A stretch of DNA of 64,000 nt from assembly GCA_963717525.1 (NCBI GenBank), contig OY970343.1:896001-960000 (forward strand), read 5' to 3'. A model generated the notes under the pieces. That model worked only from the letters and a program-made list of their open reading frames with translations. It did no database searches and was not told where the DNA came from. This stretch comes from an uncultured Methanoregulaceae archaeon. Lineage in GTDB: Archaea > Halobacteriota > Methanomicrobia > Methanomicrobiales > Methanospirillaceae. Shown in pieces: positions 32,791 through 48,306 of this stretch; position 1 is the first letter of the stretch; each line of letters opens with the position of its first letter. A program made the translations under genes and the position numbers.

Positions 32791-33483
32791 TTAACTATAC
32801 TGGCTTTCGTTCAGGTTCCCCGAGTTTGAATATCCCCGCTGCTCCCAGTAGCCCTGGTAATTTGGATTATCAGAGAGTTCAATCTCATCGATCCATTTGA
32901 TCCACTTGTAACCCCATTTGTCCTCTGCCACCAGCCGGAAAGGATAGCCGTGTTGGGGATCGATGGTGACATTGTTCATTTTGTATGCGATGATGATATC
33001 GTTGTCCATGACATAGCTGAGCGGGAACGATGTTGTGTACCCGTCAGTAGCGTGGAAGATCACCGTATTTGCCCGCGGGTCGACACCTGCATCATTGATG
33101 AGATCCCTGACAAGCACACCTTCCCAAAGGATCTTAACAGACCAGCCTTCGACGCAATTGAGCGTAACAACCTTGGTGTAGTGCTGGTAATTGTCGAGGA
33201 CCTCATTATAGGTCATCATTTTGGTTGTCGTGGTGAGGCCGGTGACAGTAAGCCGGTAATCAGAGATGTTCACGTTCTGGGTACCGATGATTGCATTCTC
33301 GGGCACATTGCTGATGGACGAGAGGTCCTGTCCCTCATAGGACCGGACTTCGACAGCTGCGAGGTTTGTGGTCCCGGCTGGGGATTGTCCGGATCTAAAC
33401 ACCGGGCTCAAAAAGACTACCACAAGAGCGATAACGACGACCGCTATCACAAGCGCGATCACGAGGTACAAGCGATTGTTCAT
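32791..33483 (-). CDS. Membrane-anchored molybdopterin-dependent oxidoreductase (sulfite oxidase/MsrP-like)
   Basis: LNCVEGW Moco-ligating Cys, WEGV, DGYTT, HGYPFRL, GYKWIKW, GYWEQRGY. Confidence 0.88.
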   Translation of the reverse strand: MNNRLYLVIALVIAVVVIALVVVFLSPVFRSGQSPAGTTNLAAVEVRSYEGQDLSSISNVPENAIIGTQNVNISDYRLTVTGLTTTTKMMTYNEVLDNYQHYTKVVTLNCVEGWSVKILWEGVLVRDLINDAGVDPRANTVIFHATDGYTTSFPLSYVMDNDIIIAYKMNNVTIDPQHGYPFRLVAEDKWGYKWIKWIDEIELSDNPNYQGYWEQRGYSNSGNLNESQYS

Positions 33484-33562
33484 TGATTGTTACCTGCACC
33501 CTCAGTCACATTAAGGTTGGGATTGGGGAACAGGACCGGTGTCTCCCGGCCGGGATTGCCGG

Positions 33563-33865
33563 TCATACCGTTCCAGCAGCACCCTTTTTCTTCGGATACC
33601 GGTACGCGACAAGTTCCGCCGAAGCGCCGATAACAATCCCCATGACAAAACCCCATGGGGAAAGCCCGCAGACGCCCTGCCATTCTGTTATTATCATTCC
33701 AAGAAACGTGCAGGTGATGAGAATGGGTACAAAGAGCTTCCCGGGGATCGGCTGTCGCCTGCCACCCTGTACAATTTCACGTTTTTCTGCCCGGAAATAC
33801 AGGAACAGACAAAGAACGGCAAGTGCAAGGCCACAAAGGGCAATAATCGTGAAGGTCTGGGACAT
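33563..33865 (-). CDS. Small three-TM membrane protein
   Basis: Hydrophobic helices; co-oriented upstream of the Moco enzyme. Confidence 0.5.
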   Translation of the reverse strand: MSQTFTIIALCGLALAVLCLFLYFRAEKREIVQGGRRQPIPGKLFVPILITCTFLGMIITEWQGVCGLSPWGFVMGIVIGASAELVAYRYPKKKGAAGTV

Positions 33866-34084
33866 GGTTGAAGGATGGGATCTGCACGAAAACATTACAG
33901 CGATCTGGATATATAGTTCGGGTTGATGACAATCATGGGAGCGAGCGATCAAGGGCAAAGCCTGCACATTCTGCATAAAACCCCCCTGCCTGTCGACGTT
34001 TTTCACTGCACTACGGGGACTTTCCAAAGGGGCTTTCAGGGCCGGGCCGGGGTTTTTCCATCGTACTTCATCTGCCTGATGCGA

Positions 34085-34146
34085 TCACTTTCACCCCCCG
34101 CGTGGCCGGCACTTTATCTCCCTCAGCAGGGCAGGGATCCGGTGCC
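34085..34146 (+). promoter_or_regulatory. Promoter copy 1 of the PolB2 cassette: TCACTTTCA element, C-run, TTTATC TATA-like box, leader CAGGGCAGGGATCCGGTGC
   Basis: Near-identical to 41881..41943 with the same spacing (ACTTTC starts 60 bp before the ATG in both). Confidence 0.7.
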
Positions 34147-34668
34147 ATGCATATCGAGCTCCGCAAGGGTCTGACACTCCGGCCAGGCACATTCAACGCG
34201 GTCATTGCACCCGAGAAAGAGATAGTCACCGCCATTAACAGCAACGCGGATCTCCAGCGGTTCCTGTTCCTTTACATCAGCGGGAACTACTCCCGGATCC
34301 TGTCAGGTATCAACAGGCAGTCAAAAAACTTTGATGTCCGCCGTGGATTTACCGCCCACCAGCTCTTCACCATACTCCGGGAGGCCGGCCATACGGTCGT
34401 CTTTGTCGAGCACGACCCCTCGCTTTTTGACGGGGCGGCAGCCATGCTCGAACCAATTGCCAGTGCCTTGAAAGAGGCCGCCCGGGAGTCGCTCGTCATC
34501 CTCTATACGCCGGTTGCCGACCGCACATTCTCAACACTTGGACGGAACGCGGATCACTACATCGAGATCGTTCCGGTTGAAGAGACCCGGTACCCGATCC
34601 GCACCAGCCGTACCGTACGGCAGTGCGGCCTGCGTCCCTCCGGGCAACGCACGCTGGAGGTATCATAA
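34147..34668 (+). CDS. Degenerate RadA/RecA-like protein of the PolB2-associated type (no Walker A)
   Basis: VRRGFTAHQL (RAFT-x-x-Q-like) and VVFVEHD Walker-B-like strand; a 5' paralog sits directly before polB2. Confidence 0.7.
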   Translation: MHIELRKGLTLRPGTFNAVIAPEKEIVTAINSNADLQRFLFLYISGNYSRILSGINRQSKNFDVRRGFTAHQLFTILREAGHTVVFVEHDPSLFDGAAAMLEPIASALKEAARESLVILYTPVADRTFSTLGRNADHYIEIVPVEETRYPIRTSRTVRQCGLRPSGQRTLEVS

Positions 34669-34933
34669 ATGGGCAGGACATTTCCCAGTGTCCGGCAGGG
34701 TGTCAACAGCACGGCGGACCGGTGGGCCCGGTCAGCCCGGGCACTTAAGAGGGGAGACCAGCAGTACCGGTGAACAGCTCGTGAACCTGGCAAAGACGCA
34801 TTCGAGCGAGGCGTTTGTAGCCTGCGACGATCCCCTCGAAGCCGTGGTCTTCTCAGCACTTGTCGAAATCCTCAAGCGGCAGGACCGGCTCGAAGAGGAC
34901 ATGAAAAAGCAACGGGACGAGCCGCCCGGATAA
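34669..34933 (+). CDS. Small alpha-helical PolB2-associated protein; apparent frameshift ~34768
   Basis: MGRTFPSVR..W....RALKRGDQQ(Y)GEQL...AKTH.....DPLEAVVFSALVEILK matches, from recall, the small protein encoded with archaeal PolB2; ATG abuts the upstream stop. Confidence 0.7.
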
Positions 34934-35378
34934 CCTCAAGAATCAGGACGGGGTCCAGCGCCGCTTATCCCACCTTTTGACGTCTGAAAAACTCCCGTAA
35001 AATCGCCCGATTGATCTCTATAAAATTCAAAGCCCTTTTATCCTCCTATTTGCCAAAATACGCCAAAATTGAGCCCCATATAATGGCCTTTAGAGCCCCA
35101 TATTCGCGTTCCAGAGGCCTTGTTTTTCCGGATCGTGCAATTGGTAATTTTACCTGTGATCTGCCAAAATAACCCCGTTGTTGAGTCCGTTTTAATTTGT
35201 CCGATTGGCAAAATAAGGCTGATTTAAGGTTATTTTAAAACGGAGCCCGATACGGGCTTCTTTTGGAGGTAGAAGCGGGCAATCGGGACTCAAATTGGGG
35301 CCGGATTGAGGAGGGCGGATCACTGATAGATCCAGTGGAAAAACAGGTGGACCAGAACTGAGGTTTTCCACGCGGCTC

Positions 35379-36041
35379 TCACAATGGTTTGATTACCTGC
35401 TCGTCATCTGCCGCTGTATTATTTATCAGGTCCGGGACCGGGTACGCCTCCATCCCCTCCGCAGGAAACGGTGAGAGGATCCGGTGCATCTCCTCAGCGG
35501 GAAGCGCCTCGCGGGAAACCCAGCGGATCTCATCCTCCTGCCGGAGGATCGCCGGCATCCTGTGGTGGATGGGAGCGACGATGCTGTTTGCGGGGGTCGT
35601 TATAATCGTGTACGTCGCAAGAGTTGTACCTGCCGGGTTGTGCCAGATATCGTAGAGCCCGGCAAACGCAAAGACCGGATCGTTGGTTTTGTGGATATAG
35701 AACGGGATCCTGCGCCCCCATTCCTCCTTCCATTCAAAAAATCCGCTCGCGGGTACAAGGCAGCGTTTCGTCCGCAGCAGATCGCTAAACATCGGCTTAT
35801 CTGCAAGGTTCTCTGCCCGGGCATTGATCGGGCGGTGCATTGACTTGATGTCCCGTGCCCAGTGCGGGACAAGCCCCCACTGCATCATGACCGCTTCAAC
35901 CCGTTGCTCGTGCGCCACGATCACCGGGTTCGTGCTGCCCGGCGCGATGTTGAAGTGTGAGCGAAAGCCAATGGACGGGTCCATCACCCGGAACCTCCCG
36001 CAGATATCATCAATGCAGAGAAGCGAGTACCGGCCGCACAT
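35379..36041 (-). CDS. SOS-response-associated peptidase (SRAP/HMCES/YedK abasic-site crosslinking protein)
   Basis: MCGRY N-terminus (catalytic Cys2), FNIAP, MQWGLVP, INARAE, RCLVPASGFFEW, FAGLY, IHHRMP. Confidence 0.93.
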   Translation of the reverse strand: MCGRYSLLCIDDICGRFRVMDPSIGFRSHFNIAPGSTNPVIVAHEQRVEAVMMQWGLVPHWARDIKSMHRPINARAENLADKPMFSDLLRTKRCLVPASGFFEWKEEWGRRIPFYIHKTNDPVFAFAGLYDIWHNPAGTTLATYTIITTPANSIVAPIHHRMPAILRQEDEIRWVSREALPAEEMHRILSPFPAEGMEAYPVPDLINNTAADDEQVIKPL

Positions 36042-36137
36042 ACGCTTCACTCTGGTGCAGGGTCTCTTCAAGGTTTTGCGCCGGGCTGCTGCACCGGGAA
36101 AAATGGTTACCTCAGAAAAAAGTTTTCCTTTCTGAAC

Positions 36138-36998
36138 TTATGAGATCTTTTTGATAAACGTGTCATTTTCGTACTCGTCAAACGCCTGCTGCAGTTCCTC
36201 CTGCGTGTTCATGACGATGGGGCCGCCCCATGCGATCGGTTCGCGGAGCGGTTTTCCCGAAAAGAACAGGAACCTCACTCCTTCGCCGCCCGCACGGACA
36301 CCGACCGCGTCACCCTCATCGCCAAACAAGGCCATCGTCCGGTTCGCCAGCTCATCTTTATGGCCCTCGTCAAATCTCCCGGTGCCGCCGATCACATAGG
36401 CCGCTGCCCGGTAACCGGGTTTTACCGGGTGGGAGAACTGCGCACCCGGTTCAAGGGACACATCGAAGTACTCGGGGTCCGCCATGATATCGCGGACCGG
36501 GCCGGTGACACCGGCGATCGTTCCGCAGATGACCCTGGCACTCGCGCCACCCGGCAGGGTGACACTGGGGATTGCATCGGCCTTGATTTCCTGGTACCGC
36601 GGATCCATCACCTTATACTTCCGGGGCAGGTTAACCCAGAGCTGGAACCCCCCCATGCGGCCGTTGACCGGTTTTGGCATCTCCTGGTGGATGATGCCGG
36701 AACCTGCCGTCATCCACTGGACACATCCGGCGTCGACATTACCCGCATGGCCCATGCTGTCACCGTGTTCGACGGTCCCCTCCAGCATGTAGGTCACCGT
36801 CTCGATGCCCCGGTGTGGGTGCCAGGGAAAACCGGCAAGATAATCCCTGGGCCGGTCTGCACGGAAGTCATCCAGCATCAGGAAGGGATCAAAGTCCGGG
36901 ATCTCGTTATAGCCGAACGCCCGGTTAAGGTGAACGCCAGCTCCTTCAAGGGTAGGTCTGCTCTTCAGGATCCTGGCAATCTCCCTGGTTTTAATCAT
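36138..36998 (-). CDS. Pirin family protein
   Basis: DPFLMLD, GFPWHPHRGIETVTY, WMTAGSGIIHQE, FQLWVNLP, GPIVMN. Confidence 0.95.
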   Translation of the reverse strand: MIKTREIARILKSRPTLEGAGVHLNRAFGYNEIPDFDPFLMLDDFRADRPRDYLAGFPWHPHRGIETVTYMLEGTVEHGDSMGHAGNVDAGCVQWMTAGSGIIHQEMPKPVNGRMGGFQLWVNLPRKYKVMDPRYQEIKADAIPSVTLPGGASARVICGTIAGVTGPVRDIMADPEYFDVSLEPGAQFSHPVKPGYRAAAYVIGGTGRFDEGHKDELANRTMALFGDEGDAVGVRAGGEGVRFLFFSGKPLREPIAWGGPIVMNTQEELQQAFDEYENDTFIKKIS

Positions 36999-37077
36999 AT
37001 ACAGTCTCCCTGCAAGTACCTGAATTGTTCAGACTGCTTCGCCACATACAAGGTATAGTAATCACACGACCTTACAC

Positions 37078-37731
37078 TCACACTTTTTTAAAGCAGAGGT
37101 ACCAGTCCTTGCACTCGTACCCTTCGCTTAAGCGCTTCTCCATCTCAGCTGCGGTCTTTGGCGGCGCCACGACCACCTTGTCGCCCGGCTGCCAGTTTGC
37201 AGGTGTTGACACCTTGTACTTGTCTGTCGTCTGGAGGGCTTTTACCATCCGGATGATCTCCGGCATAAACCTCCCGTTCGATTGCGGGTAGTAAATCATC
37301 GCCCGCATGATCCCCTTGTCATCGATAAAGAAAACGCTCCTGACCGCCGCGGTAGAGTTCAGGGCCGGGTGGATCATGCCGTACTTCTTTGCCACTTTCA
37401 TGTTCAGGTCAGCAATGACCGGGAACGGGATAGTGACATCCATCTTCTCCTTGATGTTACGAATCCAGGCAAGGTGTGCCGATATGCTGTCAACGGAGAG
37501 CCCTACCAGTTTCACGTTGAGCGCTGCAAGTTCATCGTTGATAGCGGCAAATGCCATGAATTCCGTTGTACAAACAGGGGTGAAATCAGCGGGATGTGAA
37601 AACAGCACCACCCATTTCCCCTTCAGGTCCGAGAGTTTGATCGGGCCCTGCGTGGTCTCAGCTTCAAAGTCCGGGGCAGGTTCTCCCAGTGCCGGAAAAC
37701 TTATACATTCCTCTTCAGCCATTGTAACCAT
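37078..37731 (-). CDS. Peroxiredoxin (Prx6/archaeal type)
   Basis: LFSHPADFTPVCTTE, YYPQSNGR, TPANWQPGD, C-terminal CKDWYLC. Confidence 0.95.
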   Translation of the reverse strand: MVTMAEEECISFPALGEPAPDFEAETTQGPIKLSDLKGKWVVLFSHPADFTPVCTTEFMAFAAINDELAALNVKLVGLSVDSISAHLAWIRNIKEKMDVTIPFPVIADLNMKVAKKYGMIHPALNSTAAVRSVFFIDDKGIMRAMIYYPQSNGRFMPEIIRMVKALQTTDKYKVSTPANWQPGDKVVVAPPKTAAEMEKRLSEGYECKDWYLCFKKV

Positions 37732-37917
37732 CTCCTTTGCTTCCCTTGCAGGGAGTTAAGGTACCTTCAGTGGAACCCCTGTCTCCCTGTATCTGTTCAT
37801 GATACCCACCTGATTTATCAGGCATGAGATCCTCAACGGGCATACTTCGCATCCGTTCGGGACCGGATACGTTCCTCTTTCCGTTTGATCCGATAAATGA
37901 ATGGATGCAGGAATCAC

Positions 37918-38530
37918 CTACTGGAGCCCGATCATTGCGCCGTAGCGGGAATATACTTCCCTGACAAGTTCCATGGATTTCGGGTTAGCCCAGTCGTGCA
38001 TCCATTCCGATATCAGCGATTCGGTCGTGATCGGAATTACGCCAGCCTGCAGCATCCTCTCTATCCCGTACCTGTGGGCATCAGCAGTGGAATCACCGCC
38101 TGCATCAATCAGGCCGTAGACTTCATACCCTTCCCTTATCGCGTGGAGGGCAGTATAGGCAAAGCACATACTTGTCCACAGTCCGGAGACAACGAGCTTC
38201 TTCCGGCCCGTCTTCCTGAAGGCAGTCCATACCTTATCATCCTCGAATGCATCGAAGCTGAGAACCGATCGCGAGATCGCTTCCTGTCCGGGAAAGAGTC
38301 GGGTGATCTCCCCGATGAAATTACCATTATGTTCCGGGTTGATGGTTGTCAGTACCAACCGGAATGTTCAGGATAGTTGCTGCCTTGGCAGCGCAATAAG
38401 CCGAGTTCCGGATAATTGTCTTGTCACCCGATGCTACACCGGCAAACATCGCACGCTGGTAGTCCACGAGCACCAGTGCGCTGTTCTTGTCGCTCAGCAG
38501 TTCCAGTTTTCCGTCTTTTGGATTTGCCAT
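37918..38530 (-). CDS. Isochorismatase-family hydrolase (YcaC-like); apparent frameshift ~38358
   Basis: LVLVDYQ, SFDAF, GLWTSMC, DAGG...AH. Confidence 0.85.
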
Positions 38531-38639
38531 GTTTCAAACCTCCCTGTGTGCTACCTAAATTGTCCGGACATTTTACTCCGTATAATTCAGGTCAGTCTTA
38601 TCTTCTAATCCGAACTTTTTCTTCTATTCGGAGCCTCAG

Positions 38640-39343
38640 TTAATGCTGTACGTGGCTCCCGTCGCAGAACGGCTTGTTGTGCGATTTCCCGCAACGGCAG
38701 AGGGTGACCCGGTTCCGTACCGTGTAGGGTTTCCCGTCGGCGGACACAACAGGGATTTCACCCCGCACCCAGAGTGGCCCGTGCTCGCCCTTTGCAGGAT
38801 ATTCGATGACAACGATGGACTTTTCCAGGACCGGTTCGACCAGCTCCTCGCTCCTCCGGTCCCGGATAACAAGCCGGCCGGACGGGCAGTTGCAGGCCTC
38901 TTCGATAGCAGTATCCCGCGCTTCCGGGATACCTGACTGTTCGGTGAGGTTCCAGATCCCGCCGGCCCGCATGCAGAACCGGGCATGGACGCAGAGCTCG
39001 TGATAATCGGTAAGCTCCAGCTTCCGGGCCCCGGATTATTTCCGGGTCGACTGAGGTACGGTTCGTTCCCGGCAGTTTCGGTACCATTGAAGCGGGTCTT
39101 GGCATGGGTCCCGTCGCAGAAGGGTCTGTTCTCGGAATGACCGCACCTGCACAGGGCGCATTCCTCTCTTACGGGATAACGGTCAACGATCTTCCAGGTC
39201 CGGCAGTACCCTTCATTATCATTGCATATCTCCGCAACAACAATAGGAACGCCACCGGTCGCGATATAAGGACCGTTCTTCGTGACGGTGATCTTCATGG
39301 AATCGTTTTCCGGGTCCTGAGATTTTTTTATCTGGTCTTTCAT
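38640..39343 (-). CDS. CDGSH iron-sulfur protein (two CDGSH domains flanking a divergent ferredoxin-like domain); apparent frameshift ~39030
   Basis: LCRCGHSENRPFCDGTH and LCRCGKSHNKPFCDGSH; central CVHARFC..CPSGRL. Confidence 0.88.
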
Positions 39344-39366
39344 ACCGGTAGTTTCACCACCCGGAA

Positions 39367-39780
39367 TTAAATCTTGACAAGCACGTCGCTGCCATCCACT
39401 TTCACTGCGTAAACCGGTTGATCGTACGTCTTGATCAGGCGCTGCTCCTCGGCAATTCCCTCAAACATCAGCGCCACCGCTTTTTTCACTTTATCGGGAC
39501 AGCCGGTAAACATCTCCTTAAGCCCGCCGAGTTCCAGAACCGGCCCTGACATCAGTTTCCCGGTGGTTATGTCAAACTGTGAAGAATGCATGGGGCAGGT
39601 CACGATGGTATCCATAAGGGATCCCCGGGAGAGCCGGGCGTTCTCATGACCACACCGGTCCCCGATCGCGTAGAATGTACCCCCGACATTCGCGATGCAC
39701 AGCTCTGTCGCGCCGGCCTCAACATGTTTCATGGTTCCGGCAGGAATCTCGCTTACTCTGGCAACTTTGACAAAACCCAT
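39367..39780 (-). CDS. Rieske [2Fe-2S] ferredoxin with C-terminal insertion
   Basis: CGH...CPMH ligands, FDITTG. Confidence 0.88.
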   Translation of the reverse strand: MGFVKVARVSEIPAGTMKHVEAGATELCIANVGGTFYAIGDRCGHENARLSRGSLMDTIVTCPMHSSQFDITTGKLMSGPVLELGGLKEMFTGCPDKVKKAVALMFEGIAEEQRLIKTYDQPVYAVKVDGSDVLVKI

Positions 39781-39805
39781 AGGATCGACCCCCCTTGACA
39801 GGCTT

Positions 39806-40243
39806 TCACATGAGGCCGATCTGCTGCATCAGGCCGATTTTATCGTAGAAGAGTTTCTCCTCAGTGATCTCCCCGTTCTTCCAGTGTGCGACCGTGCAGA
39901 ACTCCACTTTAAATTTCTTGCCGGTCGGCGGGATGACCTTCCCGTCCGGCCAGGTCATCGGGCCCTTGAAGGTGCCGGTGAATTCGGCGACCGAACACGT
40001 ATAATCCCCCTGGCCGAAGAATATCTTGTACGGCCGGTTCCCGACCCTGTTGTCCGGGAAGATCTTAAAGAACGCGATTGCCTCTTCCTTGTGAGACAGG
40101 CGACCATGGGTCGGATCTGCCTGCGCCGGCCAGAAGACATCGACCTCTTTCGCATGGCGTTTCTCAAACGTTACCCAGTCCTGAGAATTCCAGGCATCGT
40201 CCAGCGTCTGCATGAGACGCATGTTCTCTTCCACAGTTGACAT
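39806..40243 (-). CDS. SnoaL-like / ester cyclase family (NTF2 fold) protein
   Basis: FPD, FTGTFKGP, PPTGKKF, W.NGEI.EE..FYD pattern. Confidence 0.85.
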   Translation of the reverse strand: MSTVEENMRLMQTLDDAWNSQDWVTFEKRHAKEVDVFWPAQADPTHGRLSHKEEAIAFFKIFPDNRVGNRPYKIFFGQGDYTCSVAEFTGTFKGPMTWPDGKVIPPTGKKFKVEFCTVAHWKNGEITEEKLFYDKIGLMQQIGLM

Positions 40244-40600
40244 CGTTGTTCTCCTTGTGTTACGAAACCTGAATTACCCTGCCGGGGGATAAGGATTTTG
40301 TAATATATATTCGGGAAAATGCTAATCGTTGGTACACCTGATGAAACGACATCACGAACCTCTCTTCCTGTGGACATTGCAAAGGCATACTCATGTGATT
40401 ATGTGAAGCGGGCCCGGAAGGTGGCTAAAATGATAAACAGGTTCAGAGGGGGTCATCCCGCCCGGTTGATCTTATGCGATCGGGGGGCCCTGCTGCCCGG
40501 TACGAGAGTAACGGAGGACCCGAAACCAGCCGCCACCGGGATGCACAGGCACCCGCACTGATTTCAGATAAATTACGATGTGTGGTAAAAAAGGGTGGTT

Positions 40601-41159
40601 TTAGTGCCCGAACTGGACATCGAAGTAGATGTTCTTCCCTGACGCCTTGAGGGGGAGGCCATAGGCGACACTGCAGCCTTTCAGGTGCCCGGCTTTGAGG
40701 GCAACAAACCCGGCCGTGTACATGATCCGGTTGTCGACATTGTGGATGGATGCCGTCTTCGCCGCTGAGCCGACGGCAATACCGAGGTCCGAGATCTTGA
40801 GCACACAGTTGGGTCCGGCATAGGCTGAACCCTTGTTCTTCCGGCCCTTCTGCGCCTTTGCCATCTCTGCACAGGCTCACGTACCCGCATCCGCCACAGT
40901 TTATGCCAAGTGTCTTCTGGCCTTCGACACCAATAAGGACCGTGGCGTCGCTTGCCTTCACCTGTTCACCGTTAATCCGGAGAAACTCCATCCCGGTCTC
41001 TTTTGCTGCGGCAATCATCGCATCTCCGAGCGCCTTCTGTTCCTCTCCGGTAAGCACCTCGATTTTTATCGAGTCAATGCCACAGGCTTTCGGTGCCGTA
41101 CGGGCGGCAAGCGCCATGAGGCCGGCAACGGTCTTTACTGCATCTGATTCACTGGTCAT
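40601..41159 (-). CDS. DUF2148-like ferredoxin-domain protein; apparent frameshift ~40877
   Basis: ARTAPK..G, NCGGCG...C, GPNC..K..DLGIAVGSA, VDNRIMY, KNIYFD. Confidence 0.8.
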
Positions 41160-41238
41160 AAACGGGAATTGACCCCGCCAGGTATTAAACCATCAGGGTA
41201 CAGGTACTATTTCCTGCCGGTGAAGGCCGGCCCCCGTA

Positions 41239-41520
41239 TCACAGGCCGCAGCACGAAATCACGGGAGCCGGGCGGACAAGGCCCGCCGGCCTGCGCCGCT
41301 CGTAGTCCCGCAGGTAATCGTAGACCACGCCGGGGAAGAACCGGCTGTTCCCGGCCACGGCTGCGGCCGTGTGCGGGTCGGGTTCCGCTTTGTGAGCGTG
41401 CTGTCGGGTGAGCTCTGCAAGGATCCTTTTTATCGTCATAAGTTCTCCGAGCGTTGCAGGGCACTCATTATCATCGATCACGGCTTCGATCTGCTGTACA
41501 ACTTCATCCATCCGGGTCAT
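41239..41520 (-). CDS. Hypothetical protein
   Basis: 93-aa ORF with plausible composition and upstream GGAG; no family recognised. Confidence 0.45.
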   Translation of the reverse strand: MTRMDEVVQQIEAVIDDNECPATLGELMTIKRILAELTRQHAHKAEPDPHTAAAVAGNSRFFPGVVYDYLRDYERRRPAGLVRPAPVISCCGL

Positions 41521-41880
41521 GAGTTTTTTTCACTCCTTTTGCAGGTTTCTGCTGGATGGATGTCAGCGGGGGTGGTTATATAATGGAAAAATCGCCGGGG
41601 TTCGTTTGAAGAACGGCCCGGTATCGCGGTCGAACCCCCGGGTTATACAAAAAGACCGTAAGCATCTCTGCATCCGGCCATGGAAATGGAAGCGGTCGCA
41701 TCATAGACCGGATCGGAGCCCCCGGCCGGCATCAGGCTCGTAATTCGCATGAAGCCCTAATGTGCAGTGCAGAGAAAAAAGCATAAGAGGAGCACATCCG
41801 GTCTGCACCGTCAAGGTACCGCTGGCAGGGTACCGGGGAGTTACCGGGACCGGGCTGCCAACGTTTCTTACCCTGACCTG

Positions 41881-41943
41881 TTCACTTTCGCCCCCCGCAG
41901 GGCCAGCCTTTTATCTCCCTTGGCAGGGCAGGGATCCGGTGCT
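41881..41943 (+). promoter_or_regulatory. Promoter copy 2 of the PolB2 cassette (TTCACTTTCG..TTTATC..CAGGGCAGGGATCCGGTGC)
   Basis: Direct paralog of 34085..34146. Confidence 0.7.
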
Positions 41944-42111
41944 ATGCAGATCGAGATCCGCAACGGGTTCACATTCCAGCCGGGCACCTTTAACGCTCTC
42001 ATCGCACCCGGGAAGGTGATCGTTTCCGCCATCAGCACATACGCGGATCTCCAGCGGTTCCTCTTCCTTTCCGTAAGGAAAATTTTCCCCGTACCAGGGA
42101 TGATCAGGTGA
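41944..42111 (+). pseudogene. Truncated 5' fragment of the RadA-like gene (paralog of 34147..34668)
   Basis: MQIEIRNGFTFQPGTFNALIAP..ADLQRFLFL aligns with MHIELRKGLTLRPGTFNAVIAP..ADLQRFLFL; similarity ends ~42070, about 45 bp before polB2. Confidence 0.8.
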
Positions 42112-42117
42112 ACGACC

Positions 42118-44104
42118 GTGTGGATCCTCGACTCCGCGTACCGGGACGGTGGTATCGATCTCTGGACAAAGGACGGGACCGTCTCAAAAGTACACCACGA
42201 TTACAATCCGCCATTTTACGTCCACTTCCACGACCCGCACGCTCATTACGAGATGATTGAGGCGCTGGAAGAACGGTACTGCGCGGAAGAGTGCACCATC
42301 CACACCCTTTTTGGCAAGATCCCGGGTTACGCGGTCTCTGCCCGGCCGGGACGTGGCCGAAGCAATTGAACGGCAGGCACACTATAAGGTCGATCTCTTC
42401 AACGTGGACGTGCGCCGCGACCAGAGGTTCATGGCCGAGCGCGGGATTTTTCCCTGTGCAAAGGAAGGTGACACCCGGTTTTCCCCGGAGATCACGCACG
42501 ATCTTTCTGTCCTGAAGACCTGCATCCACGGTAATCCGACGCTTTCTGTATCCCCGACCGAAATTGAGGTGACGGGCGGCCACACCGAACGGATTACCGG
42601 TGAGACAAAGGATGTGCTCGCAGATTTTTTCGGGCTCATCAGATCGCTTAACCCTGATGTGATTCTCATCCCGGATGCCGATACCTGGATGCCGAAGATC
42701 CGGGCCCTGGCACGGCAGTATGATCTTCCCATGCCCTTCTCGCGGAACGGGAAATACCGGCAGATGGCTTCCCGGTCGTACTGGAGTACGGCCATATGGA
42801 GCACAAGGAGTCTGCACTCATTCCGGACGGCCGTATCCTGATCGACACGGAGCAATCGTTCGTGTACCGGGAAGGCGGTCTTGAAGGGGTGCTCATGGCT
42901 GCCCGGCTCTCCGGGCTTTCCCCTAATCTTGCATCGCGGTTCACGCCCGGCACGCTCATCAGCAGTTATGAGACCTGCGAGGCGGTAAAACGGGGGATCG
43001 CGGTACCGTTCCGCAAGAGCGATCCGGAACAGGTACGTAAGCTCTCCGCGCTCCAGGCAGCCGACCGGGGCGGGCTGATGTTCCAGCCAGAGCCAGGGAC
43101 GTTTGAGAATGTCGAAGAAATCGATTTCACATCTATGTATCCTTCGATCATCGTGAAGGCCAATCTATCACCGGAGACGATCGGACATTCGGAGCGCCAC
43201 GGTTTTCTCCCTGAAGTGCTCAAGCCGCTGCTCGACCTCCGCTTCGAAACAAAACAGCTCAAAAAAACCGATCACCGGTACTCCGGATCCGATGCAATCC
43301 TCAAGTGGATGCTTGTCACCTGCTTCGGGTACACGGGATACAAGAACGCGAAGTTCGGGAGGATCGAGGTGCACGAGAAGATCACGGGCAGGTCACGGGA
43401 GATCCTGCTGCAGACAAAGGAGATCGCGGAATCCATGAACTTCCGCGTGCTGCACGGTATCGTGGACTGCCTCTGGGTGCAGGGATCGTCAGTTGAGGCA
43501 CTCAAAAAACGGGTCGAACGCCAGACTGGCCTATTTCTCGAGATCGACCATTTCGACTGGATCGTTTTCCTGCCTCTGGCAGACGGTTTCGGTGCGTACA
43601 ACCGGTATTATGGCCGGCAACCGGATGGCAGCGTCAAGGTCCGGGGGATTGCAGCACGCAGGCACGATACCCCGGAATATATCAGGGAGATGCAGGAGGA
43701 GATGCTCACGGTGATGGGCGGTGCGGCAACTATTGGGGAGCTCCGGGAAAGGGAGTGTGCGGTCAGGGATATATATGAGAAGTATTGTGAAGGACTGCCT
43801 TATGCGAATGTCCGCAAGTTTGTAGTCAACCGGCGTATCGAGCCGGGTGACCTATGCGCACCGGTGTCTGGAGTCCTCAGCCATTCAGGCTTACAAAAGC
43901 CAGGGCGTTCCTGTCGCACCGGGGATGAAGATATCCTATGTGGTGCAGGATGCGAAGCGATACTTCGTTGACACCGGGTGGAGTGCGTCGGTCATCGATG
44001 CCGGGTATTACCAGGCGCTCCTCGAAAAAGCATGGCAGGAGATCAGCTACGCGATGTTGAATGACACTTGCACAATCCACGATGAAAAATGCAGTAAAGA
44101 ATGA
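42118..44104 (+). CDS. polB2: Family B DNA polymerase, PolB2/Dpo2 type; apparent frameshifts ~42340, ~42790, ~43845
   Basis: [10 protein letters not shown] (motif A), [12 protein letters not shown] (motif B), HGIVDCLWV (degenerate motif C in place of YGDTDS), NRYYG, KVRG; exonuclease motifs not evident. Confidence 0.88.
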
Positions 44105-44398
44105 TCTCCCCTCCCGAAACTGCCTGTCGTCATCACATGGGGTGGGCGATAAGCATCATCAGCATCCGGAAGAGTGCTAAAGCCCAGTCATCTGTAAATC
44201 CGCCGGTTCTGCGTAAAATTATATTTCCACGTTCTGCATAGGAACGGGGTGGAACGGCTATAGGCCTGCACCAGATATTCCTGCCCGGTCTTTTCTCCCA
44301 TTAAATATAACCGGAAAATACTCTTGTCAATTACCAAAAGTGTTTATACCCCCTTGGAAGATTACCAGTTATCGAAATACCGATGGAGCGAATGAGAT

Positions 44399-46360
44399 AT
44401 GGCACAAGAAGAACCAAAGCCCGTGATGGTCCGGGAACGGCTCGACGTCTGCGAGCTGGACCGGGCCCGGATGTCCCTGATGAACCCTGCACTCATTGAG
44501 CAGAAGAAACAGGAACGCACGATCGATGAGAATGCCAAGCCCCTCCTTGAAATGGCGATGAAGGAGGGCCTCGAAACGGTCTGGGACCGGTACGAGATGC
44601 AGCAGCCACCCTGCAAATACTGCGAAGCGGGGACCTCCTGCATGAGGTGCACCATGGGCCCATGCCGGATCATCCCACCACACCGCATCCGCGGCGTCTG
44701 CGGGGCCGATGTCGACCTGATCGTTGCCCGCAACCTGCTTGACACGATCGCGACCGGGTCGGCAGCCCATTCTGACCACGGCCGTGACATCGTCGAAACA
44801 CTGTACCTCGTTGGAACGGGAAAGGCCAAAGACTACGGCATCGCCGATCCGGACAAACTGCGCGTGCTCGCAAAGGAATACGGTATTGCTACGGACAAGA
44901 AAGGCACAATGGAGATTGCAGCCCTGCTCGGACGTGCCCTGCTCGAAGAGTACGGCATGACCAAAAACACCCTCCAGCTCCTCAACCGGGCCCCGAAGGC
45001 CACCCGGGATATCTGGGAGGCGGCCGGCATCTCCCCGCGGGGGATCGACCGCGAAGTCGTCGACTGCATGCACCGGATCCAGATGGGGGTCGGTGCGGAT
45101 TATGTCAACATCCTGCTCCAGGGCCTGCGCTGCAGCCTCTCGGACGGCTGGGGCGGGTCGATGCTGGGTACCGATATCTCGGATGTCCTCTTCGGGACGC
45201 CGACCATTAAGGAATCGAAGGTGAACCTCGCGGTGCTCAAAGAAGACCATGTGAACATCGCAGTCCATGGCCACAACCCGGTTCTCTCCGAGATGGTAGT
45301 AAAGGCAGTCGCTGACCCGGAACTTGTTGGGCTTGCAAAGAAGAACGGTGCAAAAGGCATCAACCTCGTCGGGCTCTGCTGCACGGGAAGCGAGCTGCTG
45401 ATGCGCAAAGGCGTCCCGATGACCGGCAACCACTTCAACCAGGAGCTCGTCATCATGACCGGGGCACTTGAAGCGATGATCGTCGATTACCAGTGCATAT
45501 TCCCCTCGCTCCCGCGGACCGCAAGCTGCTTCCACACGCTCATTGTCTCAACCAGTTCCAAGGCAAAAATACCGGGCTCGTACTTCTTCGATTTCAGCGC
45601 GGACAAGGGCCTTGTGACCGCAAAGGCAATCGTCAGGATGGCAGTTGAAAACTACAAAAACCGGAACCCAAAGCGGGTCAACATCCCCGGAACCCCGGTC
45701 CCGCTCATGTCCGGGTTCTCCAACGAGGCGATCAAAAAGGCGCTGGGCGGATCGTTCAAACCCCTTATCGATGTCATCGCTGCCGGTAAGATCAGAGGTG
45801 CAGTCGGTATTGTCGGGTGCAACAACCCACATGTGAAACATGATTACGGTCACGTGACCCTCTCCAAGGCACTGATCAAGAAAAATATTCTCTGTGTCGA
45901 GACCGGCTGCGCAGCGATCGCCTCGGGAAAGGCCGGCCTTCTCATGCCATCAGCCGCAGCGCTTGCGGGCGATGACCTGCGGGCGGTCTGCGAATCGTTA
46001 AAGATCCCGCCCGTGCTCCATATGGGCTCCTGTGTGGATAACTCGCGTATCCTCGTGCTTGCGGCTGAACTGGGCAATGCACTCAATGTCCCGATCCACA
46101 AGCTGCCCATCGCTGGCGCGGCACCGGAATGGTATTCGCAGAAAGCGGTCTCGATCGGCGCATACTTTGTCGCCTCCGGTGTCTACACCGTGCTCGGCGT
46201 CATGCCGCATATTTCCGGCAGCCCGGCAGTGGTATCGCTTTTGACCGACGGGCTCAAGGGAGCGGTGAACGCGAACTTTGCCGTGGAGCCCGATCCCTTA
46301 AAAGCAGCCGATCTCATCGCAGGCCACATCGAGAAGAAACGCATCGATCTGGGGATTTGA
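44399..46360 (+). CDS. cooS: Ni,Fe carbon monoxide dehydrogenase catalytic subunit (monofunctional CooS)
   Basis: C-x2-C-x4-C..GVCG B-cluster ligands, HSDH, C-cluster ligands HGHNP, CCTG, DYQC, GCNN, TGC, GSCVDN, and SQKA. Confidence 0.95.
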   Translation: MAQEEPKPVMVRERLDVCELDRARMSLMNPALIEQKKQERTIDENAKPLLEMAMKEGLETVWDRYEMQQPPCKYCEAGTSCMRCTMGPCRIIPPHRIRGVCGADVDLIVARNLLDTIATGSAAHSDHGRDIVETLYLVGTGKAKDYGIADPDKLRVLAKEYGIATDKKGTMEIAALLGRALLEEYGMTKNTLQLLNRAPKATRDIWEAAGISPRGIDREVVDCMHRIQMGVGADYVNILLQGLRCSLSDGWGGSMLGTDISDVLFGTPTIKESKVNLAVLKEDHVNIAVHGHNPVLSEMVVKAVADPELVGLAKKNGAKGINLVGLCCTGSELLMRKGVPMTGNHFNQELVIMTGALEAMIVDYQCIFPSLPRTASCFHTLIVSTSSKAKIPGSYFFDFSADKGLVTAKAIVRMAVENYKNRNPKRVNIPGTPVPLMSGFSNEAIKKALGGSFKPLIDVIAAGKIRGAVGIVGCNNPHVKHDYGHVTLSKALIKKNILCVETGCAAIASGKAGLLMPSAAALAGDDLRAVCESLKIPPVLHMGSCVDNSRILVLAAELGNALNVPIHKLPIAGAAPEWYSQKAVSIGAYFVASGVYTVLGVMPHISGSPAVVSLLTDGLKGAVNANFAVEPDPLKAADLIAGHIEKKRIDLGI

Positions 46361-46362
46361 GC

Positions 46363-47208
46363 ATGCCGGTCGGGACCCGGTCAGAGAGAAAGGGATCCGG
46401 GTCGTCATCACCGGGAAAGGTGGTGTCGGGAAGACCACCCTTGTGGCTCTCCTTTCCCACATCTTTGCAAAAGAGGGAAAACGGGTCCTTGCGATCGACG
46501 GGGACCCCCAGCAGAATCTCGCGGCAACACTCGGGATCCCCAAAGCCGAGGCGGAGCAGATCGTCACGGTATCGGAGAGCACAAACTACCTCCGCGAGAA
46601 AACCGGGGCCGGCCCGGACGTATCACCGGGCGGGCTTCTCACCCTCAACCCCGATGTCAGCGATGTGGTCGACCGGTTTTCTGTGCCAGCGGGCGATAAT
46701 GTCCGCCTGCTGGTCATGGGAGGCATAAAGGAGGCGGGCGGCGGATGCCTCTGTCCCGAATATACCCTGCTTGCCGCGATTCTCCGGCACATGCGGCTCC
46801 TCGAAGACGAGGTGATCATTCTTGATACGGCAGACCGGCCTCGAGCATTTTGGGAGGGCGGTGGCCGAAGGGTTCACCTGCGCGGTGGTCGTGACGGACC
46901 ACTCCTATAACGCAGTTTCCGTGGCCCGGAAATCCGCGGCGCTTGCGCACCAGCTGGGGATCGAAAATGTGATCCTCGTCGTAAACCGGGCAGAGGACGA
47001 GACCGACATCCGCAATGCCTGCGGGAGCGAGGGGGGCGTCACGGCGTTTTCGCAGACAATTGTCCTGCCTTTCGACCCCGGGGTCAGCCGGACTGATCCC
47101 GCGATAACCTCCCTTGTTGACAGCAATTCAACGTTTATCAGGAACGTTTCGACCCTTGCAGCGGCCATCGCCGGCCGGTGCGAGAGCTGGTCCCCGCCGC
47201 TTCGCTAA
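46363..47208 (+). CDS. cooC: CODH nickel-insertion ATPase; apparent frameshifts ~46390, ~46830
   Basis: ITGKGGVGKTT, IDGDP..NL, GGCLCPE (CxC), GLEHFGR. Confidence 0.88.
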
Positions 47209-47395
47209 CAACGGGGGCCGGGGAATTCTCTGGATTTCTCTTTTTCTCCATCCGCATCACCCTGGAAGATAAATCTCTTATCTCCATTCACCATTATGAA
47301 AATTCTCCGGCACATGTGCAGTGACCACCAGTGGACCGCTTGTTTATTGTGGGAAGGAACCAACGTCTGGTACCAGAACATAGGATGGTGAATGC

Positions 47396-48306
47396 ATGCA
47401 ACGCTCCGATCAACCTGTAGTTCAGGCCCATCATGCGGTCTTCTCGGTCACCGCACTCTCCTCCCGGTTTCCCGTACCGCCAGAAATCCCGGCCGATGCA
47501 CTCTGGGTCCTTATCGTCGGCCAGGGTGTGGCAATACGGGACGGCGACACCCCGGAGATCTATGCTCAGGCTGCCCCCCCACCGTACACCCGTTCCGGTC
47601 CGGTCGAGTATCTCGGCCACCGGGGCACCGTCCCCTTTTACGCAGTGGGCCTCCGTGAAGATGCCACGCTCCCGGAGGGCCTGGTTGTTGCCGGTGTGCG
47701 AGAGCTTTCGGCAGGATACCAGAAGAGGATCTCGCCATTGCATCCTTCGCGGTCCGGATGATCGGATCGGCAGCAGCGAGCCGGTTCTGTGGCAGGTGCG
47801 GCCATGCGACCGAACCGGTCCTTTCCGAGCGGGCATGGAAATGCCCGGGCTGCGGCCTTGGTGTCTATCCCCGCATATCTCCGGCAATTATCGTGCTAAT
47901 TATCCGGGGCGAAGAGATCCTCCTCGCTCGCTCTCCGCGGTTCCCTGCCGGTATGCATTCCGTGATCGCCGGTTTTACCGAACCAGGCGAGACGCTGGAG
48001 CATGCCGTTTGCCGCGAGGTGCGGGAAGAGATAGGTATTACCATAAAAAATATCCGCTATTTTGCGAGCGAACCCTGGCCGTTTCCCGATTCTCTCATGA
48101 TCGCGTTTGTGGCTGATTACGCTACCGGTGAGATCACCATCGACAATAACGAGATCGTTTCCGCGGGCTGGTTCTCCCGGGACAACCTCCCGGGACTCCC
48201 CGCACGTATGAGCATCGCGCGGGCGCTCATCGACTGGTGGGTAAAATCCGAAGAAATACCGGTATCAAAAAGCGACGCTGCAGGCAGCAGACGGCGATTG
48301 GCATAA
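47396..48306 (+). CDS. nudC: NAD(H) diphosphatase / NAD-cap decapping Nudix hydrolase; apparent frameshift ~47708
   Basis: FCGRCG..CPGC zinc ribbon, YPRISPAII, Nudix box GFTEPGETLEHAVCREVREEIG, SEPWPFPDS. Confidence 0.9.

Follow-up and report, generated by a model that had tools for sequence, protein, structure and literature searches.

Introduction

Archaeal PolB2 mutasome operons (Sulfolobus Dpo2; PMC4104785, PMC11791011) encode an inactive RadA-like protein (iRadA), a small subunit (PPB2) and the polymerase PolB2; an iRadA-PPB2-PolB2 operon with a SRAP gene nearby has been published (PMC11791011), and an extra, polymerase-less operon of iRadA and PPB2 has been described in haloarchaea (PMC4104785). 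Here we analyze such a cassette in a 64,000-nucleotide stretch (the window) of the genome of an uncultured Methanoregulaceae archaeon (contig OY970343.1, positions 896,001 to 960,000), where the three genes are divided between two copies of one promoter region, and the promoter box that these copies share with a set of DNA repair genes. We consider it probable that the operon was duplicated and then trimmed in complementary fashion, that the shared box is the site of a damage-responsive activator, and that the products of the two halves assemble in trans into an error-prone polymerase.

Two described promoter elements resemble the box. The motif TTTCACTTTCA is found upstream of ultraviolet (UV)-induced Halobacterium genes and of M. 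hungatei radA (PMC2556686). The Sulfolobus sequence ANTTTC is needed for damage induction and is bound by Orc1-2, on which the induction of dpo2 depends (PMC6061795), and a viral Orc1 acts in a haloarchaeal damage response (PMC10123103). Among bacteria, the SOS cassettes imuA-imuB-dnaE2 and umuDC likewise join an error-prone polymerase to a dead RecA-like helper, and the box of the LexA regulon is likewise common to a recombinase gene, uvrA, dinB and a YdjM-family gene. The bacterial ydjM gene is an SOS gene.

The operon is divided between two copies of its promoter

A 206-nt direct repeat (34075-34280 and 41872-42077; 80% identity, spacing 7797 nt) supplies the leaders of the two halves. Copy 1 consists of the leader, a 173-aa open reading frame (ORF) encoding iRadA (34147-34668, + strand) and the gene of the small, presumably helical PPB2 (34669-34933, + strand), after which there is no polymerase. 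Copy 2 consists of the same leader, 44 iRadA-homologous codons (41944-42077) and polB2, which runs on the + strand from a GTG at 42118 to 44104. This is the layout given in the initial annotation, which placed the second copy 7.8 kb away with the same promoter and about 42 codons of the RadA-like gene. The iRadA stub (41944-42111, + strand) adds a short junction to the 44 codons, which are 66% (amino acid) and 78% (nucleotide) identical to copy 1; its reading frame stops at 42111, 6 nt ahead of the polB2 GTG, and a Shine-Dalgarno-like AGGTGA occupies 42106-42111. The genome as a whole (designated G000; 2.29 Mb, 87% complete) has a single full RadA-like gene, a single polB2 of the copy-2 kind, and one full PPB2 gene plus one decayed copy elsewhere. 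Thus, unlike the published PolB2 mutasome operon, no locus here holds all three genes, polB2 lies behind a duplicate promoter and a 44-codon stub, and there is no adjacent orc1/cdc6 or lexA gene.

Both leaders carry a box, CACTTTC(A/G)C, that precedes the TATA box by about 18 nt. In copy 1, where it was defined from the sequence and its conservation in relatives' iRadA leaders, the box spans 34086-34102 (+ strand; core CACTTTCAC at 34086-34094, TATA-like TTTATC at 34113-34118), and in copy 2 it spans 41883-41899 (+ strand; core CACTTTCGC at 41883-41891, TATA-like TTTTATC at 41909-41915).

As assembled, PPB2 carries one frameshift and polB2 three, leaving the polymerase in four pieces. A search of sequencing runs found at least 0.86 of the sampled words in 12 of 22 listed runs, from four studies, and the Logan contigs of four runs (one per study, one of which may be the source sample of the assembly) were aligned to the window. 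RNA data sets did not figure among the runs listed as matching, which speaks neither for nor against expression. Compensating single-base indels were present in all four runs at 34767, 42786 and 43840, and in three of the four at 42341 (run X10 is uncovered there); after correction the frames encode 87 aa (PPB2) and 661 aa (PolB2). Indels shared by the runs number 10 in the 14.5 kb from 33000 to 47500, about one single-base indel per 1.5 kb, and the broken genes at 38355, 39022, 39048, 40874, 46382 and 46834 are likewise products of assembly indels. The 9178-nt contigs of runs X1 and X3 are continuous from 35237 to 44419 and so span the copy-2 deletion junction, which a 5364-nt contig from a third study also bridges. 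This contig evidence rejects both a misassembled duplication and genuine polB2 frameshifts, and the split of the operon over two promoters is real. The stretch 35237-35259 falls within a multi-copy repeat and is crossed by none of the contigs, and for the join between copy 1 and the SRAP gene the evidence is therefore the assembly together with equal depth on its two sides.

The encoded proteins

The initial annotation's family identities for the three genes are borne out. iRadA was placed only by its fold: its sequence returned no Pfam or NCBIfam family, and a hidden Markov model search of the PDB gave a best E of 0.07. Its AlphaFold model (predicted local distance difference test, pLDDT, 84.8) matches a RAD51 paralogue, RecA and DMC1 best (Z 11.9, root mean square deviation (rmsd) 3.0-3.6 over 143-150 residues), and Foldseek also returns RecA/Rad51, which answers the question that had been left about a RecA-type fold for 34147-34668. 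A 29-row alignment contains no Walker A motif (GxxxxGK[ST]), and the protein ends in a QxxL clamp-like tail, QRTLEV; it is thus a RadA/Rad51-fold partner lacking both the N-terminal domain and the ATPase motif. PPB2 (arCOG07300-type), read with the extra base at 34767 removed, begins MGRTFPSVR and so has the N-terminal MGRT arm at the sequence level. Many congeners carry a second, divergent PPB2-like gene, without this arm, away from the operon.

PolB2 scores 593 bits against NF004416 (cut-off 516) and also matches PF00136. In the 661-aa frame, motif A is intact (DFTSMYP at 336), the first Asp of the DxD of motif C is replaced (GIVD at 447), and the D(K/R) loop before motif A consists of a single DR at 316, in QAADRGG. 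The D(K/R) loop, the altered DxD and the MGRT arm have been described for PolB2 and PPB2 (PMC11791011). The locus therefore shares with the published mutasome (PMC4104785, PMC11791011) an iRadA with a RecA fold and no ATPase motif, the MGRT arm, the D(K/R) loop, the altered DxD, the clamp-like iRadA tail and a SRAP gene nearby, and its relatives have the same three genes in the same order. A prediction of the PolB2:PPB2x3:iRadA complex, made with a 350-aa piece of PolB2 and the PPB2 of a relative (G004) rather than that of the window, scored 0.59 against 0.00 for the best control, with at least 70% of contacts agreeing between runs and a partner pLDDT of 81; in calibration, scores of 0.60 or less were also given to 18 of 157 solved complexes and to both of the mismatches that passed. 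The prediction lends slight support to such an assembly.

Analogy with ImuA-ImuB-DnaE2, proposed initially, holds as an analogy, and membership in that group does not: unlike the bacterial cassette, in which a C-family DnaE2 and a Y-family-like ImuB stand under LexA, this locus has a B-family polymerase, a PPB2-type small subunit, no LexA, and a non-palindromic box upstream of TATA that is likely used for activation and not for de-repression. The system to which the cassette belongs is known, and only its split form varies; in view of the published cassette with SRAP (PMC11791011) and the published polymerase-less pair (PMC4104785), the novelty first claimed for it was overstated.

Probable duplication with complementary loss, and comparison with relatives

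We compared 41 genomes including G000 (G-numbers denote genomes and L-numbers loci). Matches were found to iRadA in 30, polB2 in 30, SRAP in 31 and PPB2 in 28; of the 30 genomes with a polB2 match, 29 have an iRadA match and 28 a PPB2 match. Among 29 relative iRadA loci polB2 is directly downstream in 20, and all three genes stand in order in 18. In the full operons the distance from the iRadA ATG to the polB2 start is 718-832 nt, as against 174 nt here, so about 550-650 nt have been lost from copy 2. A tree of leader plus coding sequence (33 rows, 194 columns, after removal of 12 loci that were duplicate, frameshifted or distant) joins copies 1 and 2 as sisters with support of 97/89. These comparisons agree with the duplication and reciprocal deletion first proposed, and duplication with complementary loss likely produced the split operon.

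Comparable splits occur in four other genomes. G005 has iRadA and PPB2 at one locus (L037) and box, stub and polB2 at another (L036); G024 has L005 and, at L038, box, PPB2 and polB2; and G030 and G040 each have iRadA alone, with box, PPB2 and polB2 at another locus.

The box precedes repair genes in this genome and its relatives

The exact core, derived from the relatives' iRadA leaders, occurs 29 times in G000, and a TATA-like word follows in 10 of these cases against a background of 4%. These sites include radA (NF003301), a YprB/RNase_H_2 gene upstream of an MrfA-type helicase gene, and a YdjM-family gene; with one mismatch, the box also precedes nreA, which is followed by dinB. A position weight matrix (PWM) was trained on 100 sites from relatives only (radA, nreA, yprB and iRadA leaders, for which reason only other genes are out-of-sample). 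It found 20 sites scoring at least 15 in G000, 15 of them with TATA, while three shuffled genomes gave 4-7 sites, 0-1 with TATA. The copy 1 box ranks among the top sites, and the scan added uvrA and an OB-fold gene that we take to be RPA-like. Repair genes, or what is left of them, follow eight of the 15 top TATA sites (radA, iRadA, the polB2 leader, yprB-mrfA, nreA-dinB, the RPA-like gene, uvrA and a PPB2 pseudogene). The box is rare, with scores of at least 12 in only 11 of 2780 ORF leaders. A third box with a decayed PPB2 pseudogene lies at C1:526921-527250 of G000 (L056), and no ORF is evident behind a strong box at 1827881. The initial annotation was right that both halves share a promoter, and the same box ahead of each supports the co-regulation it proposed for them; it missed that this box also precedes the main repair genes.

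Among relatives the word ACTTTC lies 54-62 nt before the start in all 28 iRadA leaders counted, in flanking DNA that is not conserved. It is upstream of radA (29/29), yprB-mrfA (29/29; the computed starts of L154-156 are off, and their box distances are not meaningful) and nreA (26/28, both misses being a paralogue about 33% identical, hence 26/26 orthologues), and also of a 139-aa gene of no known family (27/29), the RPA-like gene (25/29) and uvrA (19/30), compared with 40 of 2780 ORF leaders as background. A control Orc1/Cdc6 gene had it at regulon distance in 0 of 30 orthologue leaders. The counts for the 139-aa, RPA-like, uvrA and control genes include G000, and rows dropped beforehand were L001 and L030 (iRadA), L121 (radA, nreA and yprB), L217 (139-aa and SRAP) and L247 (RPA-like, uvrA and control). 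NreA works with UvrABC in Haloferax (PMC7776575), and MrfAB are described as mitomycin repair factors (PMC11194089, PMC7797055).

A 16-nt pattern of the box, applied to five genomes from three other families, matched 31 times, against once for a backwards control. Of 30 such loci examined, 11 matched reference genes; targets comprise radA (five), the RPA-like gene (two), iRadA and an Orc1/Cdc6 paralogue, and the remaining 19 loci include mre11, MCM and two TIGR03916 radical-SAM genes. A scan of GTDB for box plus TATA returned at least 118 stretches; the 80 with titles are 75 from Methanomicrobiales, four from other archaea and one from a bacterium, the other archaea among the matches listed including Methanoperedens and Methanimicrococcus. 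Downstream genes among the matches listed (at least 118) are the 139-aa gene (67), radA (14), mre11, Hef and a distant iRadA-like gene, in proportions that are biased because the pattern was modelled on radA-type promoters. At L358, L389 and L440 (Methanoperedens and an unassigned euryarchaeon) box plus TATA stands before a Hef nuclease gene; the gene that follows it at L405 (Methanimicrococcus) is unannotated.

The box shares with the Halobacterium UV motif TTTCACTTTCA the core CACTTTCA, the place upstream of TATA and a position upstream of radA. It differs in extending 3' (C-C-Y-(G/C/A)-C-R-C), in not requiring the 5' TTT and in a wider set of targets (the PolB2 operon, nreA-dinB, yprB-mrfA, RPA-like, uvrA, mre11 and Hef). 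With the Sulfolobus DNA damage-responsive element (DDRE), which controls polB2 there, it shares the ANTTTC core upstream of the core promoter, here at a fixed distance from TATA in repair-gene promoters; its flanks differ from the 20-bp DDRE consensus, its targets here include recombination and excision-repair genes, and no Orc1/Cdc6 gene with its own box was found in G000. A search of the literature for the literal motif gave only PMC2556686 as relevant among the matches listed. The box has previously been published for one methanogen radA promoter, and the largely open-access literature searched on methanogen damage regulons, main texts and abstracts, yielded no account of this regulon. The box likely marks an SOS-like DNA-damage regulon in many related methanogens.

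Regulator and proposed mechanism

By analogy with Halobacterium and Sulfolobus, the genes behind the box would be induced by DNA damage. Activation would be expected rather than repression, because the box, at a fixed distance upstream of the B recognition element (BRE) and TATA, is placed as the Sulfolobus element is. As regulator, a winged-helix protein of the Orc1/Cdc6 type is the likeliest candidate. Only two Orc1/Cdc6 genes were detected in the 87%-complete G000. One, the control gene above, is rejected as a self-boxed regulator by its count of 0/30 at regulon distance (ACTTTC does occur at 115-157 nt in 10/30 leaders, mostly in one unrelated context), and the remaining one has no box in G000. 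Third Orc1/Cdc6 paralogues are present in other families and were not found in the genus of the window; one of them, at G028:C1:1044213-1045385 (L473), resembles the self-activating Sulfolobus Orc1-2 in that a box precedes it by 57 nt. Another candidate, the winged-helix gene that follows a box at G000:290117, was rejected as a general regulator, since only 4 of 41 genomes have it.

We suggest that DNA damage would activate a factor which, by binding the box some 18 nt ahead of TATA, would bring in the basal machinery, so that one damage signal would fire both promoters. PolB2 would be translated behind the 44-codon stub and would join iRadA and PPB2 from copy 1 in trans, in a heteropentamer of the published type, possibly docked on PCNA through the iRadA tail, to act as an error-prone lesion-bypass polymerase; both this complex and its mutagenic activity are predictions for this locus. 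Since the box travels with each copy, splitting the operon would cost little, which fits the recurrence of splits.

Several observations weigh against this reading. The relatives are kin and not independent samples in the box counts, 6 of the 15 top sites precede genes of unknown function or no ORF (one more precedes the YdjM-family gene), and one Orc1/Cdc6 gene lacks the box at regulon distance in all 30 leaders, unlike the self-activating Sulfolobus Orc1-2. The tree of the copies rests on 194 columns, and G005, one of the comparable splits, has a frameshifted polB2 and an assembly that is 60% complete. Only G020 retains an operon among the four closest relatives, whose RadA is about 95-97% identical: G003 is left with a C-terminal polB2 fragment, and searches of G015 and of G012 (73% complete) found no iRadA, PPB2 or polB2.

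Alternative explanations

These losses in three of four closest relatives indicate a clade that often loses the system, and they could mean that the duplicated operon is in slow decay, its halves persisting from unfinished loss with no working complex. The genus has many copies that are orphans or carry internal deletions (L008, L040, L045, L047, L050 and L033), and G000 itself has the further box with a PPB2 pseudogene. Relative to G004, the ratios of nonsynonymous to synonymous substitution (dN/dS) are about 0.09 for PolB2, 0.14 for iRadA and 0.08 for PPB2 (Nei-Gojobori, with near-saturated dS); these sequence comparisons indicate purifying selection over the long term, in favor of the main reading, and say nothing of current constraint, since they average a long branch and cannot reveal recent relaxation. 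We nevertheless judge decay unlikely, as the three remaining genes are full-length with intact motifs, both boxes and the ribosome-binding-like site of polB2 have been kept despite about 20% divergence of the copies, and complementary retention is seen again in four other genomes.

The two copies might instead be a resident operon and an operon acquired horizontally from a congener, each then trimmed, which would change the origin of the arrangement and not its mechanism. Identity between the copies (78% of 132 nt of coding sequence) is no higher than that to some congeners (80% between copy 2 and L005), and cargo at relatives' loci varies (restriction-modification-like genes in G004, labelled from their sequence). 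The tree that unites the copies at 97/89, their same orientation and their separation by 7.8 kb make this origin the less credible one, and we rate its chances as low.

Poorer still are the prospects of an explanation in which the box is real and is a general or growth-linked element of DNA-metabolism genes, with the halves expressed constitutively or in step with replication. Its targets do include the RPA-like gene and, in one genome, MCM and an Orc1/Cdc6 paralogue, all of them replication genes, several others are of unknown function, and we found no induction data for methanogens in the literature. The rarity of the box (the 11 of 2780 leaders above), the predominance of repair and tolerance genes among its targets, and the occurrence of the same word at UV-induced genes in Halobacterium and as an experimentally defined damage element in Sulfolobus make this very improbable.

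A long-read misassembly with a polB2 pseudogene, to which the 10 indels in 14.5 kb and the unbridged 35237-35259 might point, is scarcely conceivable given copies only 80% identical, a copy-2 junction bridged in three studies and short-read contigs free of the indels.

SRAP, cargo and a dispersed repeat

A SRAP/HMCES-family gene lies at 35379-36041 (- strand; 220 aa). It matches PF02586 with E 2.5e-67 (227 bits, cut-off 27.1) and its product begins MCGRY, with the Met-Cys-Gly-Arg N-terminus. Cys2 is the catalytic residue in this family. Although the gene was correctly located just after copy 1 at the outset, its assignment to that copy is not supported: it converges on copy 1 and points away from copy 2, 5.9 kb upstream of the latter. 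Among relatives, 5 of 29 loci have a divergent SRAP gene some 110 nt ahead of iRadA; the gene is also divergent in G004, 4.5 kb upstream with other cargo in between, and in G005 and G024, where it precedes the unit that carries polB2. SRAP therefore most likely belongs to copy 2, with redox-type cargo inserted between them. Co-regulation of SRAP with the cassette, also proposed initially, is not supported either. None of 15 SRAP leaders has the box on the strand of SRAP, and that of G000 has none on either strand, so SRAP was rejected as a box-regulated member; the reverse-strand core in 8 of the 15 is mostly the box of the neighboring divergent promoter, from which an indirect effect on SRAP is possible. 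SRAP is enriched near polB2 (PMC11791011) and rare in archaea (PMC3765255).

The cargo between SRAP and copy 2 (36138-41520, - strand), labelled through Pfam, consists of genes for pirin, peroxiredoxin, isochorismatase-family, Rieske, SnoaL and DUF2148 proteins, a 93-aa ORF and, judging from its motif, what is presumably a CDGSH-like iron-sulfur protein; in part this block also adjoins SRAP in G012.

Between PPB2 and SRAP, at the place where the polB2 of copy 1 would start, is a non-coding dispersed repeat of about 330 nt (34985-35315, no strand assigned) that had gone unmentioned earlier. It is AT-rich with sharp ends, has 17 copies of at least 200 nt at 67-80% identity in G000 (e.g., L320-L334), and gives 5-38 matches in three congeners and none in two other genera. 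A structured RNA was rejected: Rfam gave no match (one chance match elsewhere, E 0.97), and two-sided change occurred in 1 of 34 predicted pairs on the one strand analyzed. There is no consistent association with tRNA genes, and the repeat may be an element resembling miniature inverted-repeat transposable elements (MITEs). Copies lie near two SRAP fragments elsewhere in G000.

Other genes behind the box

The highest-scoring box precedes the conserved 139-aa gene (G000:C1:73422-73838, - strand; L051:1923-2339), whose product gave no match by sequence in the Atlas, Pfam or PDB, nor with Foldseek at E 0.001. Its model has two beta4-alpha repeats and a Q-x-x-I tail, with weak Whirly-type likeness (MRP1/2, Z 6.9, rmsd 2.9 over 86 residues; SsgA-like, 6.2; PBF-2, 5.0), and on the strength of this model we offer it, as a lead only, as a candidate single-stranded-DNA-binding repair factor. 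Paralogous genes of about 125-158 aa (start MEKIPVRKY) at G000:C1:1134581 (+) and 1292406 (-) have a leader nearly identical to that of iRadA, and in G003 such a gene (L033:5461-5979) occupies the iRadA position, divergent from SRAP; Atlas matches to the protein are weak, at most 0.81, to unnamed archaeal and viral clusters. Other Methanomicrobiales families have a family of 50-80-aa basic proteins behind the box (L461, L467, L477, L459 and L354), and the two proteins searched gave no NCBIfam match.

Significance

Taken by itself, the split cassette departs only modestly from a published operon; the shared box is of greater consequence. Damage sensing in euryarchaea, methanogens included, is an open question, and the Halobacterium motif of 2008 came without a regulator; the order-wide box and its list of targets provide a bait for the regulator and a list of predictions for co-induction. 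In the methanogens of wetlands and digesters, the box would link mutagenesis under stress (PolB2, DinB) with recombination and excision repair. The box also flags unannotated genes as probable repair factors.

A broader proposal, which we regard as tentative and a little short of evenly balanced, is that Methanomicrobiales, and probably ANME (anaerobic methanotrophic archaea)/Methanosarcinales too, have an SOS-like regulon under one box, YACTTTC-N-C-N-C-Y-V-C-R-C, served by an activator like Orc1-2 in logic and covering radA, RPA, uvrA, nreA-dinB, mrfAB-like genes, mre11, Hef and the PolB2 mutasome, with the 139-aa protein under the strongest box as a candidate new repair factor. If this is true, the homology in logic to Orc1-2 would make archaeal damage control ancestral and common to the two main branches, and the mutasome, however often split, would still work in trans because a box accompanies every piece.

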